A stretch of 64,000 nucleotides of DNA from IMG/VR virus record IMGVR_UViG_2595698755_000001, positions 64,001 through 128,000 of that record. One strand, written 5' to 3'. The notes beneath the pieces were generated by a model. That model was not told the origin of the DNA. It did not search any database and saw nothing but the letters and a program-made list of their open reading frames with translations. The stretch comes from a virus (lineage: Duplodnaviria > Caudoviricetes). Position numbers and translations under genes: made by a program. Positions 1-42,192 of this stretch are shown here, piece after piece; the stretch's first letter is position 1; each line of letters opens with the position of its first letter.

Positions 1-483
1 ATTGAAGACAGCAAGCCATCGTTATTAGGTGAGTATTTACCTTCATTACTAGGATTGAAAGATGAAGAGATTCTATACACAACTGTAACAAATGACTATA
101 AAGGAACATTGCTTGTAGGATTTGATACAGGTAAACTTGCAAAGATTGAATTGTCAGCGTATGCGACTAAGACAAATAGAAAGATGATTATGAATGCATA
201 TTACAATGGGGCAAAGGCGCTATACTTTAACGTGATTCAAGAAGACATTGATATTGTAATGGTTTCTAGTATCAATAAAGTAGCCTTGTTTAATACAGCT
301 TCAATCAATGCGAAGACATCTAAAACAACACAGGGTAATCAGTTAATGAGAACTAAGAATGATAGCATCGTAGAATCCATCGTAGATGTCAAAGATTGTC
401 AGTTTGAGGATATTGAATATTACCGACTAAGTAATGCAGGTGTAGGAAAGTATATGAAAAAAACTGATGAAATTGCTTCTTGA
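1..483 (+). CDS. Type II topoisomerase (gyrase/topo IV) subunit A, C-terminal part; 5' end outside window
   Basis: Frame is open from base 1 (IEDSKPSLLGEYLPSLLGL...). GyrA/ParC C-terminal blade-like segments, e.g. KTSKTTQGNQLMRTKNDSIVES. Confidence 0.7.
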   Translation: MEDSKPSLLGEYLPSLLGLKDEEILYTTVTNDYKGTLLVGFDTGKLAKIELSAYATKTNRKMIMNAYYNGAKALYFNVIQEDIDIVMVSSINKVALFNTASINAKTSKTTQGNQLMRTKNDSIVESIVDVKDCQFEDIEYYRLSNAGVGKYMKKTDEIAS

Positions 484-38448: not shown

Positions 38449-38471
38449 AACTATATCGTAAAACAAAAATA

Positions 38472-38535
38472 ATCCCCTCAATTGAGGGGATTTTGCTATA
38501 TGTGTTTTGCTGTATAAAACTGCACTTTTATAAAG
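38472..38535 (+). repeat. Composite element at the strand switch: 20-bp palindrome (possible bidirectional terminator), 18-nt spacer, dif-like site copy 4
   Basis: ATCCCCTCAATTGAGGGGAT, 18 nt, then C-TGTATAAAA-CTGCAC-TTTTATAAAG. Confidence 0.75.
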
Positions 38536-38536
38536 A

Positions 38537-39040
38537 TTATTTACCGTTATACTGGTAATATCCTTTAGTCTTTGTACGTTTGATTTCATTCGTCACTTTC
38601 ATTGCTCTTTGTAAATTGTTATTCTGGAAGTTCTTTAGGCTTGTGATTTGTCCACCTAAACGCTCATTTGTTTTTTTGAATAACTCATTTAAATGCATTG
38701 GTGTTTTGTTTGCTTTTAATACTTCAACAATTGCTTCTGTTACGATTGGTTGTCTAATACCCATATGATTACGAATATTTTGATTGATTGGATATTTCGT
38801 TTTTGGTTTTTCTTCTAACTTCATTTTTTGTTGCTCTACTTTTACTTCTTCATTTAGTGCTGATTTTGCGAATGCAACATATTCACTTAGAGTGACTTCT
38901 GTAATTCCACGTGATTCCATTTCTGTTAGGTTGTTCAATGACTCTCTAAGACCAGAATGTAAATCAATCAATCTAGCTTGTTCATCTAGAATGTTCTTCA
39001 TCTTATTTTGGATATACGCTTTCTCTTGACTAATGTTCAC
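38537..39040 (-). CDS. Rok-like protein (N-terminal coiled coil, C-terminal winged helix)
   Basis: C-domain EAIVEVLKANKTPMHLNELFKK...NF...L.RAMK....I.R...GYYQY resembles the Rok DNA-binding domain. Confidence 0.6.
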   Translation of the reverse strand: MNISQEKAYIQNKMKNILDEQARLIDLHSGLRESLNNLTEMESRGITEVTLSEYVAFAKSALNEEVKVEQQKMKLEEKPKTKYPINQNIRNHMGIRQPIVTEAIVEVLKANKTPMHLNELFKKTNERLGGQITSLKNFQNNNLQRAMKVTNEIKRTKTKGYYQYNGK

Positions 39041-39105
39041 ATTAATCTCTCCTTCAATGTTTATTTATCTTGTAAAATCTCACTCTCACAAGTCTTACAA
39101 TTTTG

Positions 39106-39134
39106 ATTGTATATTAGGAGAGATAGCTTGTCAA
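39106..39134 (-). promoter_or_regulatory. sigmaA promoter of the rok-like gene
   Basis: Minus strand TTGACA-agctatctctcctaata-TACAAT. Confidence 0.65.
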
Positions 39135-39142
39135 CACAAAAA

Positions 39143-40096
39143 TTAATCTTTTGTACTCCATGTTCCGTCAGAGCCTTGACCATAGATTGTTACACGATGC
39201 AATCCTTCTGTTCCTAATTCTGAATGGTCAATCTCTGCAACAATATTTGTATTTGCTGTTTTTGCACCACCAGAATCAGCTAATAATCCTGTCATATAAT
39301 CCAAACCACCAACCATAACTTTATACGCTTGAACATCTTTATCAAATTTAAATGTTACTAATGTCTTTTCTGCACCCGTCACTCTGCTGATTTTTGTTCG
39401 AGTAGATGAGACAACAGAAGCAATTGGAGCAGAACTTCCCATTCCAATATCAATTCCATTATTATAATTTTGTAATACTTCTGCATCTGACAATGCTTTA
39501 GTATATCCTCTACAAGCATATATTTTACCATTAAAAAATGTATTCTTTGCATTGTAATAATTACATCCAAGATATAAGTTGTAGTTTCTAGTGAATGGAA
39601 GTGTATTTGCATTCTGCGTTGCAACTAATTGACCATTTAAATACATTTTCTTTACTGATGATGTGAATGTAAACACTACATGAAGAATGTTTGTCCCTAA
39701 AGTTGTCTCTGGACTGCTTAATGTTCCACCACCACCACGTTCATAATACATCCCAACTGATTCTCTTCCTGCTTGGAATGCACCAGTAGTGCTCATAGTT
39801 ACCCGTTCTGTCGTTCCATACCACTTTGTAATATGTGTTAATTGGTCTGGTAACCCACCAGTTCTTTGAATCACACAATCAAGTGTAAAAGCGCTTGTAG
39901 GGCTTCCTAATGTGAATCCTGTAAAATCTATAGAACTGCTTGTACCATTGAATGTAGGAACGCTATTTGTAAAAGTGATATTGTTCATTACTCCAGTCAA
40001 TACTGCCCCAGATGGAGCAATATTTTCCCATCCACTTGCAGAACACTTACTTTGATAATTCCAATAATACTTTAATCCATCTGTTACTACTGCCAT
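39143..40096 (-). CDS. LamG/concanavalin-like lectin domain plus C-terminal Ig-like domain (putative fibre tip adhesin)
   Basis: FNGTSS.I, HVVFT...MYLNG, FNGKI...R.Y.KALS..EV.QNY LamG motifs; C-domain similar to domain 2 of 40905-41579. Confidence 0.75.
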   Translation of the reverse strand: MAVVTDGLKYYWNYQSKCSASGWENIAPSGAVLTGVMNNITFTNSVPTFNGTSSSIDFTGFTLGSPTSAFTLDCVIQRTGGLPDQLTHITKWYGTTERVTMSTTGAFQAGRESVGMYYERGGGGTLSSPETTLGTNILHVVFTFTSSVKKMYLNGQLVATQNANTLPFTRNYNLYLGCNYYNAKNTFFNGKIYACRGYTKALSDAEVLQNYNNGIDIGMGSSAPIASVVSSTRTKISRVTGAEKTLVTFKFDKDVQAYKVMVGGLDYMTGLLADSGGAKTANTNIVAEIDHSELGTEGLHRVTIYGQGSDGTWSTKD

Positions 40097-40108
40097 AATC
40101 TACACTCC

Positions 40109-40402
40109 TTAAATGAATCTTGTCATGAATGAACCTCTTCGAAGAGATGGTGTTCCATCAATCTCTCCATACCATTCATAATAAAGTTTCTGTTCTTTCT
40201 TCGGTGTCGTGTAATCATAAAAGTATTCTCCAACAGCTTTCTTGTTTGTTGATGTTAAAACTTCTGTTTTTACTTCTCTATATTTTTGGTCATAAATAAC
40301 TACCTTGATTAGTTGTGGGTCAACTTTTTCGCCCTCGAAATTATAGAACACACATTCGAATCTTACTGTATCACCATACTGATATATATTCATTTTATTC
40401 AC
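40109..40402 (-). CDS. Small beta-sandwich structural protein
   Basis: GDTVRF...F....G..VDP...G.Y.YDY pattern. Confidence 0.6.
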   Translation of the reverse strand: MNKMNIYQYGDTVRFECVFYNFEGEKVDPQLIKVVIYDQKYREVKTEVLTSTNKKAVGEYFYDYTTPKKEQKLYYEWYGEIDGTPSLRRGSFMTRFI

Positions 40403-40854
40403 TCCTTAATTTGACTCTTACCATCTCTGACAGTAAGTTGTCTATCCTTGTCGATTGTTTCTGCTTTCCGTTCAATATCTTTGTTCTGTATATTTGACTT
40501 TTTGGAATCAGATATAACTGGGTTTAATATAGTTAATGATTCTCTAATCGTAATAGTTTTTTCATACAATTCAGAAACATTATCAACCGTATCCTTAACA
40601 CGAACAAATAGTCTTGCTAATCCTAAAGGGAATCCATTGAAGTCTAAAATACCTGTCAATTGATTTCCATCTCTTCTGAAAGTATAATCGTGTCTTGTAC
40701 CACTCTCATCAATTACATAAATTTCATTTGGTGTCCCTATCATCTCATCTGCTTCAATTGTAACTTCAACGCTTGCTTCTCTCACTGTATATGCAGGTGC
40801 ATAGATTTCAATAGTCGGTGCTGTTGTATCTAATTCTACAATGATATAATTCAT
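40399..40854 (-). CDS. Ig-like protein with N-terminal LDTTAP strand
   Basis: YIIVELDTTAP...VRVKDTVDNVS...TITI. Confidence 0.65.
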   Translation of the reverse strand: MNYIIVELDTTAPTIEIYAPAYTVREASVEVTIEADEMIGTPNEIYVIDESGTRHDYTFRRDGNQLTGILDFNGFPLGLARLFVRVKDTVDNVSELYEKTITIRESLTILNPVISDSKKSNIQNKDIERKAETIDKDRQLTVRDGKSQIKE

Positions 40855-40873
40855 TTTAATCCCCCTTTAATCT

Positions 40874-40901
40874 AAAAAGAGAGGTTGCGACTGCAACCCC
40901 T
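40874..40901 (-). terminator. Intrinsic terminator after the 224-aa Ig gene
   Basis: Minus strand GGGGTTGC-AGTC-GCAACCTC-TCTTTTT. Confidence 0.75.
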
Positions 40902-40904
40902 AAA

Positions 40905-41579
40905 TTATACAGACCATGTTCCTGCACTATTTTTTATGAATACTTTGATAATTTTATTTCCATCACCGCTAGATGCAAGTTCTAAGTCTTGTCCAGTAAT
41001 TGTTACAGTGATTGGATTTGTGTATCCTCCTGTATTACCTGCAATGTTTGAACTTCCATTTATAGTACCGATAGTAACTCCAGAACTTTCAACTGCTCCT
41101 GTAGAAGTAACAACCTTAACTTTGTATTCTTCAAATTGCTCTGGTGAAGAGAATGTGAATGAAACAACGTTCTTTTGCTCTTTCTTAGAGATTTTGTATT
41201 TGTCTGGTGCTCCAACATTAACTGTAGGAATAGCAGTATTTAAGCTGATATTATCTTGTGCAACGCTAGATTCATTGTATACATCATCTCTGATTCTAAC
41301 TGATACTTGTTTATTTCCATCACCACTAGAAAGCTGAATTTGCTTTGAATCAGTGTATGAAATCCAAGTAGACGTAGCTTCTGTTGTTTGGATGTTTGTA
41401 TCATATGCAGGGTCTACTGTACCCCAAATTTTCATTTGGTAGCCTGTTGTATCCTCATCTGTAGTTCCTATAGCAATCGAAACTACTTGACTATTAGAAT
41501 ATGTAGCACCTCCATTGATGTTGACATATGGATTACTTGGCGCTGTTGTATCTAATATAATATTAATAAAATTTGCCAT
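40905..41579 (-). CDS. Two-domain Ig-like structural protein (putative major fibre subunit)
   Basis: SSGDGNK occurs in both domains; N-terminal IILDTTAP. Confidence 0.7.
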   Translation of the reverse strand: MANFINIILDTTAPSNPYVNINGGATYSNSQVVSIAIGTTDEDTTGYQMKIWGTVDPAYDTNIQTTEATSTWISYTDSKQIQLSSGDGNKQVSVRIRDDVYNESSVAQDNISLNTAIPTVNVGAPDKYKISKKEQKNVVSFTFSSPEQFEEYKVKVVTSTGAVESSGVTIGTINGSSNIAGNTGGYTNPITVTITGQDLELASSGDGNKIIKVFIKNSAGTWSV

Positions 41580-41592
41580 TAAATTTCACCTC

Positions 41593-41781
41593 TTAATCTC
41601 GTTCTGAGATTCTATTTCTTACTGGACTGCAATACTTCATGTCTACAACCATTTGTCCGTTATCATCTAAAAGCAATAACAATTTCTTGGAAGAATCATA
41701 GATTTTAAGAACCTTTCCCATATAAGTAATACCGCCTTGATTAACTAGTACATATTGACCAACTGTGTACATGAACATCAT
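41593..41781 (-). CDS. Small hypothetical protein
   Basis: RBS GAAGGA; SH3-like VGQYVLV...GKVL. Confidence 0.6.
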   Translation of the reverse strand: MMFMYTVGQYVLVNQGGITYMGKVLKIYDSSKKLLLLLDDNGQMVVDMKYCSPVRNRISERD

Positions 41782-41789
41782 TCCTTCTA

Positions 41790-42128
41790 TTATTTTTTAT
41801 TTAATTCTGATTTAGCTGATTCTTTCATTTCTTTAACCATTGCTTCAATCATTAAGTCGATTTCTTTTTCAGTCATCTTGATTTTCTTTTGTTGCATTAA
41901 TTTAAGTAATTCCATTTTAGCTACGTTTAATTTTTCGTCACCTTTAAGTTGTCCGTACATCTGCTCAACAGCAGTAACAACAATCTTAACTACTTCTTTA
42001 TTGTTTTCTACTTGTGCAACAAGACCTTTTTTCTTTAAGAAACTCATCAATGATTTAGTTGCTAAACCGACACATGCAGTTAATACTGCTACAATAAGAT
42101 TTACTAATTCCATTTGGATATTTTCCAT
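41790..42128 (-). CDS. Holin, LL-H family
   Basis: N-terminal TM helix; V.AVEQ....GDEK..A...I...IEA.V..MK. Confidence 0.8.
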   Translation of the reverse strand: MENIQMELVNLIVAVLTACVGLATKSLMSFLKKKGLVAQVENNKEVVKIVVTAVEQMYGQLKGDEKLNVAKMELLKLMQQKKIKMTEKEIDLMIEAMVKEMKESAKSELNKK

Positions 42129-42145: not shown

Positions 42146-42187
42146 AAAAATCAACCATACCTGTTGACAATATCAGACAGGCATGGT
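42146..42187 (-). terminator. Terminator between the 106-aa gene and holin
   Basis: Minus strand ACCATGCCTGT...ACAGGTATGGT followed by TGATTTTT. Confidence 0.6.
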
Positions 42188-42192
42188 ATAAT
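42164..42192 (+). promoter_or_regulatory. Antisense-oriented consensus sigmaA promoter in the lysis cassette
   Basis: TTGACA-atatcagacaggcatgg-TATAAT; 17-bp spacer, extended -10 TG. Confidence 0.65.

Follow-up and report, generated by a model that had tools for sequence, protein, structure and literature searches.

A four-gene module of Ig-like and LamG proteins in a Bacillus phage that may assemble by strand completion in trans

Gene content and setting of the module

The window, i.e., the whole stretch of 64,000 nucleotides that was analysed, belongs to a Tsamsavirus-like Bacillus siphophage (96% to phage Izhevsk) with a Gram-positive host. Downstream of the lysis genes, its minus strand encodes four proteins of 224, 151, 94 (or 97) and 317 aa, the set that had been delineated in a preliminary description of this DNA; the ORF coordinates agree with that description, and every motif that it quoted is found letter for letter in P0001, P0002 or P0004. 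Holin and endolysin genes precede the module, which forms the end of the late strand and consists of only these four genes, with the lysis genes and an HTH gene nearby. There are no chaperone or usher genes in the module, and inspection by eye of the N termini of all four proteins revealed no signal-peptide features. The features discussed below are as follows.

40905..41579, minus strand: gene for the 224-aa protein (P0001), with an N-terminal spare strand, domain D1 and a strand-deficient domain D2; putative donor and acceptor
41538..41576, minus strand: spare G-type strand with DTTAP linker (ANFINIILDTTAP), codons 2-14 of P0001
41226..41537, minus strand: D1 of P0001 (residues 15-118), a complete Big_13/PKD-like Ig domain with its own last strand at 107-113
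40908..41225, minus strand: D2 of P0001 (residues 119-224), a putative Ig/FN3-like acceptor that stops in the F-G loop (AGTWSV-stop)
40880..40901, minus strand: intrinsic-terminator-like hairpin between the genes for the 224-aa and 151-aa proteins
40399..40854, minus strand: gene for the 151-aa protein (P0002), with a spare strand (MNYIIVELDTTAP), a D1-like Ig domain and a C-terminal tail of short repeats; putative donor only
40109..40393, minus strand: gene for the 94-aa protein (P0003), a small Ig/MG2-like protein; 97 aa if read from the GTG at 40402
39143..40096, minus strand: gene for the 317-aa protein (P0004), with a LamG/ConA-like domain, a C-terminal D2-type putative acceptor and no spare strand
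39146..39451, minus strand: cap (putative acceptor) domain of P0004 (residues 216-317), ending in GTWSTKD-stop

The 94-aa start of P0003 is an ATG at 40393 with AAGGAG upstream, and the 97-aa ORF spans 40109-40402. The similarity of P0003 to the Pfam family MG2 (E 0.0035) is under the cut-off; a 94-aa-type gene lies immediately 3' of the 151-type gene in 42 of the 47 loci that have one. Residues 51-207 of P0004 match Laminin_G_3 (PF13385) with 47.5 bits against a gathering cut-off of 27.6 (E 2.8e-12), and this LamG domain is predicted to be a carbohydrate-binding head.

The hairpin at 40901-40880 has a 9-pair stem with 5 G-C pairs, a 4-nt loop and a T run, which bears out, as a terminator-like structure, the terminator previously placed after the gene for the 224-aa protein. 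It recurs in several lineages: related loci conserve the stem and vary the loop, and the hairpins that follow 224-type genes comprise six distinct sequences, two of them one base apart. Such a hairpin lies directly 3' of the 224-type gene in 13 of 66 unique regions, is absent from the other 53, and was never seen after the 151-type gene (0 of 36). Its recurrence after the one gene and not the other fits production of the 224-type protein in excess. Many genes of the module are tightly coupled, with gaps of 0-20 nt.

Putative acceptor domains

Homology with D1 and with tandem Ig arrays places the ends of both D2 of the 224-aa protein and its homologue at the C terminus of P0004 inside the F-G loop, so the last (G) strand would be missing from each; the sequences thus support the earlier proposal that the two domains are cut at the same place and lack that strand. 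The relatedness of the domains, also claimed earlier, proved weak in pairwise comparison and solid by profile. BLASTP aligned D2 with the C terminus of the 317-aa protein at E 5e-4 and the 224-aa with the 151-aa protein at E 7e-4, and the SSGDGNK stretch is the sole part that D1 and D2 share when compared pairwise; on the profile side, the PHROG of the 224 family matches residues 216-314 of P0004 at E 3.5e-5, and an alignment of 41 D2/cap domains has invariant G54 and W109.

A D2/cap profile retrieved 1059 cluster representatives, and in 138 of the best 150 of these the match ends no more than 5 residues from the C terminus. Five of the 12 non-terminal cases (P0166, the first cap-type domain of P0148, P0251, P0192 and P0278) continue with a strand-like segment in register. 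The terminal Trp was also considered as a simple C-terminal cap, which was judged less likely because the AGNW loop of P0251 continues into a strand in cis.

Putative donor strands

The N terminus of P0001 matches the last strand and linker of a Big_13-type Ig repeat. When P0001 was compared by BLASTP with tandem Ig array proteins, 22 of 27 matches began at residue 6-7, on the junction between repeats; the Pfam Big_13 match, in turn, finishes at ..SDTITLDT in the array protein P0131 and at ..SDNITLD in P0128, so the junction strand is part of the preceding domain. The segment is therefore homologous to a G strand while standing without the domain to which such a strand belongs, and its resemblance to the strand missing from D2, suspected in the preliminary description, is well founded. 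Among 115 aligned relatives of P0001, L9, D10, W222 and S223 are invariant and both ends of the protein are fixed, a pattern that, on these alignments, chance does not explain. An aromatic and a hydrophobic residue occupy positions D-6/D-5 in 176 of 183 N termini of the 224 type and in 30 of 36 of the 151 type, and in none of 152 last strands of D1 in cis or 26 array junctions.

The 151-aa protein, as had been stated, begins with a donor-like strand and has an Ig domain that appears complete: its alignment onto D1 points to a last strand of its own, KTITIR. MAFFT placed the 151 family on D1 in one alignment and on the N terminus plus D2 of the 224-aa protein in another. The 168,876-bp genome contains exactly two donor motifs and exactly two acceptor domains, all of them within the module. 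These data support a division of roles in which the 151-aa protein would be a donor only, the 317-aa protein an acceptor only, and the 224-aa protein both.

Spacing and naturally linked proteins

Counted with the initiator Met removed, the distance from the conserved W to the donor D is 10 residues in 142 of 183 motif-bearing relatives and 11 in 36, and the equivalent distance in cis within D1 is 10 in all 149 cases. Hence, in 142 of the 183, the end of the domain plus the N terminus reproduces the spacing of an unbroken repeat. Given the known specificity of methionine aminopeptidase, Met could be removed in 178 of the 183 relatives, whose residue 2 is A, P, S or T.

Some natural proteins carry the two elements in one chain. 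P0166 (372 aa) fuses a 224-type protein, via GAWSKSGILRLILDTTSP, to a 151-type domain at the spacing predicted; a search for further fusions of this kind returned P0166 alone, a single sequence from one contig. P0148 consists of a cap-type domain, then NYFNL (the N-terminal consensus of the 224 type), then a second cap-type domain, and in P0251 AGNW repeats are followed in cis by KRYVFTTDDT.P. The chain order proposed earlier, 317 <- 224 <- 151, fits two of these cis-linked proteins, P0166 and P0148.

Distribution in phages

The module is present in hundreds of phage contigs: of 512 candidate viral stretches, 419 encode a relative. A 224-type gene is present in every one of the 95 loci analysed, and 29 share the gene order of the window. 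In relatives, the cap domain is the C-terminal and sole conserved part of proteins that range from 116 to 825 aa (to 928 aa in the profile representatives), and the heads are exchangeable. Many loci, in phages and prophages, lie between tail genes (tape-measure, distal-tail or baseplate) and lysis genes, and the position varies: the module follows the lysis genes in the window, lies beside capsid genes in locus L087 and precedes portal-like genes in locus L056.

Of 35 unique truncated caps, 30 are accompanied by a 151-type gene, and 32 of 33 caps with a 25-residue C-terminal extension are not; the sequences behind this association come mainly from a single sample and represent two or three clades. 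A simple 317 <- 224 <- 151 chain does not account for the loci with extended caps. Long single-chain versions, such as P0131 (844 aa), combine many D1-type domains with a single donor and a single D2.

Structure models and covariation

The AlphaFold2 (AF2) monomer model of P0001 has a mean pLDDT of 93.3. DSSP assigns strand 107-113 of D1 after strand 88-97; in D2, strand 210-216 is followed by no further strand, only a bridge at 222-223. D2 reaches a pLDDT of >90 without a last strand, residues 1-17 are not modelled as a strand, and residues 1-10 have a mean pLDDT of 88, from which the N terminus may pack on D1 instead of being free. The model of the P0166 fusion, built with an alignment of the 224 family only, has no strand at the junction: pLDDT is 26-60 over the junction and the 151-type half, and <50 for residues 229-251. 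This fold is weak evidence either way, because the 151-type half had no alignment depth.

D1 superimposes on 4xed with Z 9.0 and rmsd 2.7 over 91 aligned residues (model range 10..115), and single-domain structural matches to D1 start at residues 9-15 of P0001. Foldseek and VIA searches of the PDB gave generic tandem FN3/Ig/PKD matches only, and the predicted viral structures that came closest in BFVD belong to other LamG-cap proteins and to structural or tail proteins that bear FN3. By sequence, none of the four proteins had a credible match in the PDB; P0004 matched no solved chain at E <= 1. In the MI-APC analysis, the pair 6-208 has a z of 10 and ranks third, and the partners of the N-terminal strand are mostly in D2; a phylogenetic test of this pair comprised 4 independent pairs only (p about 0.25). 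Covariation between the N-terminal strand and D2 is accordingly only suggestive.

Comparison with known systems

In chaperone-usher pili, an Ig-like subunit lacks its last strand, which is supplied by the N-terminal extension of the next subunit, and the lectin subunit at the tip is an acceptor with no donor. The 224-aa protein may resemble such pilins: DSSP assigns no strand after 210-216 of D2 in the AF2 model, and the N terminus is a conserved G-type strand that may insert into the D2 of a neighbour. It differs from them in the Gram-positive host and in the lack of a chaperone, an usher and, by eye, signal peptides, as well as in the ancestry of its domains, which appear to descend from Big_13/PKD-like repeats and not from pilins. 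Strands are likewise donated, non-covalently, to a neighbour's incomplete beta-sandwich in the type V pili of Bacteroidota, the TasA fibres of Bacillus subtilis, archaeal threads and bundling pili. Some of these fibres form without a chaperone-usher machine; all are cellular, secreted and of unrelated families. To our knowledge, none is phage-encoded or built of an exchangeable head, a shaft and a base specified by adjacent genes.

Tandem bacterial Ig arrays with Big_13 (PF19077) and Big_7 (PF17957) domains, e.g., P0125, P0128 and P0251, are related in sequence: D1 is up to 42% identical to their repeats, with BLASTP E reaching 2e-19, and they have the motifs ..D.I.LDT.AP and GDG.K...V...D.AGN in common with the module. 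P0001 and P0002 matched no Pfam family at E <= 0.1, Big_13 included, and the relation to Big_13 is seen only through BLASTP matches to Big_13-bearing proteins (E 2e-19 to 1e-5). Whereas the arrays are continuous chains, the module looks like an array nicked in the F-G loop, its pieces coming from separate genes.

The preliminary description knew of no such fibre among phage appendages, and indeed none is described among the matches listed in a full-text literature search. For the joint itself, however, that statement needs qualifying, as phage Tuc2009 offers a precedent: its accessory carbohydrate-binding protein BppA ends in a small Ig-like beta-sandwich, one sheet of which is completed in trans by a beta-hairpin from BppU, and the composite resembles a titin Ig domain (PMC4742702). 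In an analogous layout, P0004 combines a putative binding module with a C-terminal Ig-like domain, here one recognized as strand-deficient from its sequence. Unlike in Tuc2009, where the donor is a C-terminal BppU hairpin in a single joint with no chain, the putative donor of the module is a single N-terminal strand; the 224-aa protein carries both donor and acceptor, which would make chains possible. BppU and BppA have no sequence relation to the module, P0004 having no match to a solved chain at the E value given above.

Proposed assembly and alternative explanations

Because these proteins hold a spare strand, a strand-deficient Ig-like domain or both, they probably join end to end. We infer from the sequences that the spare strand of one protein would fill the open domain of another, a strand completion in trans that would recreate, head to tail and non-covalently, the rod of which a tandem Ig array would be the unbroken form. 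In the favoured order, the LamG-cap protein of 317 aa would accept the strand of a 224-aa protein (one or more copies), and this in turn the strand of the 151-aa protein; the LamG domain would be the carbohydrate-binding head, and the repeat tail of the 151-aa protein, with the 94-aa protein, the attachment end. None of the proteins has a signal peptide recognizable by eye, so assembly would be cytoplasmic. The product would most likely be an accessory fibre of the virion that aids adsorption to cell-wall glycans. That the LamG-cap, 224-aa and 151-aa proteins are chained in this manner, probably as such a fibre, is the reading that we favour, with slightly better than even confidence.

How long the chain would be is a separate matter. 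The 224-aa protein could be the subunit of a self-polymerising shaft, its N-terminal strand entering D2 of the next copy, in a pilus-like phage fibre assembled in the cytoplasm without a chaperone, with the 151-aa and 94-aa proteins as a donor-only base and, at the opposite end, an acceptor-only head that can be exchanged (LamG in this phage, different domains in others); hundreds of Bacillota phages would then be using the module as a kit for swapping adhesin heads. This is put forward tentatively. The same joints could instead give a defined 1:1:1(:1) complex, 317 <- 224 <- 151 with or without the 94-aa protein, i.e., a LamG head on a short rod some five Ig-sized domains long. In favour of such a complex, the two donors and two acceptors of each genome match one for one, the two cis-linked proteins support exactly its order, most regions after the 224-type gene (53 of 66) have no terminator-like hairpin and the gaps are often only 0-20 nt, and long single chains such as P0131 suggest that length is set by the number of domains per chain. 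However, the hairpins found after 13 of 66 genes of the 224 type and after none of 36 of the 151 type suit an excess of the 224-type protein, and where the cap is extended and the 151-type gene is missing, no donor or acceptor is left except those of the 224-type protein. We consider a defined complex somewhat unlikely.

Two further explanations depart from the favoured virion fibre itself. There might be no strand exchange at all, the N-terminal segment being a leftover of a tandem array or part of D1, D2 being a stable six-stranded variant capped by its Trp, and the four being independent Ig/LamG proteins for decoration or adhesion, comparable to the phage decoration protein Hoc. Such a reading would account for the confident AF2 model of D2 without a last strand and of the N terminus (pLDDT of >90 and 88, respectively) and for the P0166 model with no paired strand (with its 151-type half lacking alignment depth), and single Ig-like decorations are common on phages according to the Tsamsa paper. 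A mere leftover, however, would not be expected to have kept, in 183 relatives, an invariant L9 and D10, fixed termini and precisely the spacing seen in cis, nor to differ systematically from last strands in cis (176 of 183 versus 0 of 152); the C-terminal location of the acceptor in 138 of the best 150 representatives, with a strand-like segment in register in five of the 12 exceptions, also argues against it, and we consider it unlikely.

Strand completion might also be real and the product something other than a virion fibre: a late complex, intracellular or released, that binds wall debris after lysis or serves in superinfection exclusion, for example, or a closed ring or collar in place of a rod. 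A module that closes the late strand, behind the genes for holin and endolysin, would suit such a product. So would the published data as far as available: the six gel bands of the Tsamsa virion proteome are assigned to other gene products, the available text of the Izhevsk and Kirov papers reports no virion proteomics, and the three papers, to the same extent, give no proteomic or functional data on module genes that would place their products in virions. Yet in other phages and prophages the neighbours of the module are tape-measure, distal-tail or baseplate genes on one side and lysis genes on the other, or else head genes, and the predicted viral structures that come closest are those of other LamG-cap proteins and of structural or tail proteins with FN3. 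We consider this alternative very unlikely.

Implications

If the joints of the favoured fibre are real, a continuous tandem-Ig rod has been turned into separately encoded pieces that reassemble by strand completion, and phages would have a third means of making fibres, in addition to single-chain Ig decorations and to trimers of the coiled or beta-helical kind. Protein engineering could gain a useful tag from a self-assembling, non-covalent Ig joint whose donor is a short peptide. For the phages themselves, such joints would explain the exchange of binding heads from one phage to another.

Genome Setting of the Module

The window comes from a phage genome of 168,876 bp that carries direct terminal repeats, and window positions 39000 to 41800 are matched over their full length, at 96% identity, by Bacillus phage Izhevsk (Tsamsavirus, Joanripponvirinae). 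Among the matches listed, at least 20 more records, from large siphophages of the Bacillus cereus group, are 77 to 93% identical in this 2.8-kb region. The four module genes lie on the minus strand in the order 224, 151, 94/97, and 317 aa, preceded by genes for a 905-aa tail-fiber-like protein, two small proteins, endolysin, a 106-aa protein, holin, and a 62-aa protein, and followed by a promoter-like site and a 167-aa helix-turn-helix (HTH) gene. A switch in the sign of the GC skew at about 38.5 kb marks the module as the closing genes of the late strand.

Features in and around the module (window positions)
42164-42192, plus strand: perfect sigma-70-type promoter match (12/12; TTGACA, 17 nt, TATAAT with TG upstream) between the holin and 106-aa genes, directed opposite to the late genes
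41593-41781, minus strand: 62-aa ORF between the holin and 224-aa genes; phrog_33164, a PHROG without assigned function
40399-40540, minus strand: C-terminal third of the 151-aa protein
38471-39134, minus strand: 167-aa HTH gene after the module, with its own promoter-like site (39134-39106, 11/12) and terminator (38492-38471)

The 167-aa protein gives weak matches, under the Pfam cutoffs, to HARE-HTH and Rok winged-helix domains; it is a predicted DNA-binding protein, apparently transcribed separately, encoded where the genes of both strands converge.

Domain Composition of the Module Proteins

The ORFs, motifs, and hairpin of the preliminary description are all present in the sequence as described. 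The 224-aa protein carries an N-terminal candidate donor strand, a complete Ig domain (D1), and a C-terminal predicted acceptor domain (D2); a D2-type domain, the cap, ends the 317-aa protein behind LamG, which is the sole domain recognized by Pfam in the four proteins (47.5 bits). The PHROG families of all four have no function assigned, and a sequence search for solved relatives of the four found none. Residues 216-314 of the 317-aa protein are also hit by the PHROG to which the 224-aa protein belongs; pairwise similarity among the module domains is weak, and the profile matches are clear. In 41 aligned D2 and cap domains, G54 and W109 are invariant, the blocks P.VTI, KIS, EY.V.V, DL, GDG, and I.VY.K..G.W are common, and every domain stops 1 to 5 residues past the Trp.

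In the 151 family, the Ig domain is followed by a tail of two to five short repeats of ∼9 to 11 residues with an alternating pattern (DRQLTVRD and KSQIKE in the window; ..QREVQISE, TREVMLDE, and TRKVEVAAK in locus L026), seen also in the 151-type genes of loci L002-L087. These repeats look like further beta-strands and could be the region that attaches to the virion or to the 94-aa protein.

The N-Terminal Strand of the 224 Family

Of 1021 candidates, 539 proteins, nearly all of them 223 to 227 aa long, belong to the 224 family at an E value of ≤0.001; L9, D10, W222, and S223 are invariant in 115 aligned members. Among longer relatives, D1 recurs as a repeat unit of giant tandem-Ig proteins with Big_13, Big_7, and DUF7743 domains. 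When the 224-aa protein was compared by BLASTP with three such array proteins, 22 of 27 alignments started at residue 6 or 7, and its IILDTTAP aligned with the inter-repeat junction. In the relatives P0131 and P0128, the Pfam Big_13 domain ends on the junction strand, a curated boundary that assigns this strand to the preceding domain. The N-terminus of the 224 family is, by these alignments, a predicted last strand without a domain of its own. It has a signature that sets it apart from strands used in cis: an aromatic plus a hydrophobic residue at D-6/D-5, relative to the donor Asp, in 176/183 224-type and 30/36 151-type N-termini, versus 0/152 cis last strands of D1 and 0/26 junctions in four array proteins.

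In the AF2 monomer model (115 sequences; mean pLDDT, 93.3; pTM, 0.67), D1 has strand 88-97 and then strand 107-113, D2 has no strand past 210-216, and residues 1-17 are unpaired. Structural matches to D1 alone run from model residues 9-15 to 114-117, with PKD domain 4xed as the top match (Z, 9.0; rmsd, 2.7; 91 residues aligned); D2 (117-224) matches 4iyk (Z, 8.1). Such matches are generic, suggesting only that both halves are Ig/FN3/PKD-like.

Five relatives of ∼850 aa (P0131, P0133, and P0136-P0138) open with the spare strand of the 224 type, continue with many D1-type domains, and close with a D2-type domain ending in AGTWSAIHSLSA; they are long single-chain forms of the 224-aa protein. P0012, a 224-type protein with 85% identity, comes from a 166-kb contig labeled Klebsiella pneumoniae, probably a misassigned Bacillus phage.

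Register across the Cut

Among 186 unique 224-type sequences, 183 have the motif; of these, 177 have the donor Asp at position 10, and 178 have A, P, S, or T at position 2. Past the last Trp, the chain runs on for two or three residues. Counted without the initiator Met, the gap from this Trp to the donor Asp of another copy would be 10 in 142 sequences, 11 in 36, 9 in 3, and 13 in 2, versus 10 in 149/149 for the matching cis gap in D1 (same proteins, both motifs found), so that the C-terminus of one copy plus the N-terminus of a second makes an unbroken F-G loop and last strand.

Covariation within the family offers only a lead toward contact between the N-terminal strand and D2. Pair 6-208 ranks third of all pairs (z, 10), and 70 to 80% of the top partners of positions 4-8 lie in D2, versus 35% for D1 positions; the signal is noisy, D2 positions themselves having only 55% of their top partners in D2, and just 4 supported pairs were available to a phylogenetic pair test.

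Terminal Position of the Acceptor Domain and Natural Fusions

A D2/cap profile search of 1.84 billion proteins gave 1059 cluster representatives, 741 of them at an E value of ≤1e-10. Of the best 150 of these 1059, 138 have at most 5 residues between the match and the C-terminus. Among the 12 exceptions, P0180 and P0220 have an insert that splits the acceptor domain, yet the domain is still C-terminal. In P0166 (372 aa, a singleton known from one contig only), the D2 of a 224-type protein continues via GAWSKSGILRLILDTTSP to an Ig domain and tail of the 151 type, with exactly the spacing predicted for the 224-to-151 joint and a junction pLDDT of 34-35 in the fold prediction. In P0192 and P0278, the cap domain runs through a strand-like ..SDNILDLSTDVP or ..INLFDITSDV into another domain, and P0251 has AGNW repeats followed in cis by KRYVFTTDDT.P; P0162, P0247, P0252, P0256, P0273, and P0283 show no clean register. 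P0148, matched in three stretches and outside the exceptions because the best stretch is C-terminal, has an earlier cap-type domain, then NYFNL (the 224 N-terminus consensus), and then a terminal cap-type domain.

Genome-wide, there are exactly two acceptor domains and exactly two donor-type motifs (stop-to-stop frames of ≥40 aa, both strands), all in the module, whose donor/acceptor set is closed within the genome.

Gene Order and Cap Types

Gene arrangements in 95 loci (14 genome loci, 80 of 419 viral loci, and the window)
224 cap: 45
224 151 97 cap (as in the window): 29
224 cap 151 97: 10
224 cap 151: 3
224 151 97: 3
224 alone: 2
224 cap 97: 1
cap 224 151: 1
224 151: 1

Some proteins of 116 to 138 aa consist of the cap domain alone, beginning at the AP linker with no spare strand; in others, of 219 to 825 aa, the cap is C-terminal to unrelated N-terminal parts. 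Of 35 unique truncated caps, 30 are accompanied by a 151-type gene and 2 more by a donor-like ORF, and caps with a 25-residue extension lack a 151-type gene in 32 of 33 cases, an association that few clades underlie (7 caps unclear to the typing script were all truncated by eye). Two subgroups of 125- to 130-aa caps carry the C-terminal extension as ..GSWYTLTPLFEFQFSNES.. or ..GSWNDNWGFIPS.. (L011-L013, L043-L095); no 151-type or 97-type gene was detected in these loci. One extended-cap subgroup has an F.F.F strand in the extension, in the expected register. In extended-cap phages, the 224-type protein alone supplies the remaining spare strand as well as the remaining open domain.

In Bacillus prophages and other Bacillota contigs, the module lies 3′ of tape-measure, distal-tail, or baseplate genes and 5′ of holin/endolysin genes. 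In L087 (5986-7565), it comes next after capsid-like genes, and in L056 (5889-7864), it lies beside portal-like genes, in both cases rather than tail or lysis genes, so the site of virion attachment may vary among phages.

Copy Number and Alternative Readings

We lean toward a reading in which strand completion in trans links the module proteins into a predicted accessory fiber of the virion, the LamG cap being filled by the 224-aa protein and the latter by the 151-aa protein; two natural proteins linked in cis, together with gene order, favor this order. That no strand is exchanged appears improbable. Within trans completion, a chain with the 224-aa protein repeated (n > 1) is put forward tentatively; a defined 1:1:1 complex, formed by the same mechanism, seems rather unlikely. 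The terminator after the 224 gene had been taken to imply excess of its product. The hairpin is present, its stem being kept and its loop variable in Tsamsa-like loci, and terminator-like hairpins recur, 13 of the 66 unique regions downstream having one (six distinct sequences, two a single base apart; that of L005 is possibly just a false positive overlapping a ribosome-binding site), but 53 of the 66 have none. Elsewhere, they follow 0/36 151-type, 2/32 97-type, and 9/70 cap genes. In some phages, the pattern would fit production of the 224-aa protein in excess.

A nonvirion or ring-shaped product is judged highly unlikely. The available part of the Tsamsa paper mentions two Ig-domain proteins in passing, and the products of the six virion gel bands given there do not include the module proteins. 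Nothing on the module genes was found in the available parts of the Izhevsk and Kirov papers, the latter describing a fiber-like structure that protrudes from the baseplate.

Relation to Known Systems

The module would work in the manner of donor-strand complementation in chaperone-usher pili, a family defined by signal peptides, a chaperone, and an usher. The module has no signal peptides (by eye), chaperone, or usher and therefore falls outside that family. The closest phage precedent is the joint in Tuc2009, where the Ig-like domain at the C-terminus of BppA, a carbohydrate-binding protein, is completed by a hairpin of BppU (PMC4742702). The proposal that such an assembly is undescribed for phage appendages thus has to be narrowed: a full-text literature search found no set of adjacent phage genes for donor-only, acceptor-only, and dual donor-plus-acceptor proteins able to form a chain, and a trans-completed Ig-like domain is on record.
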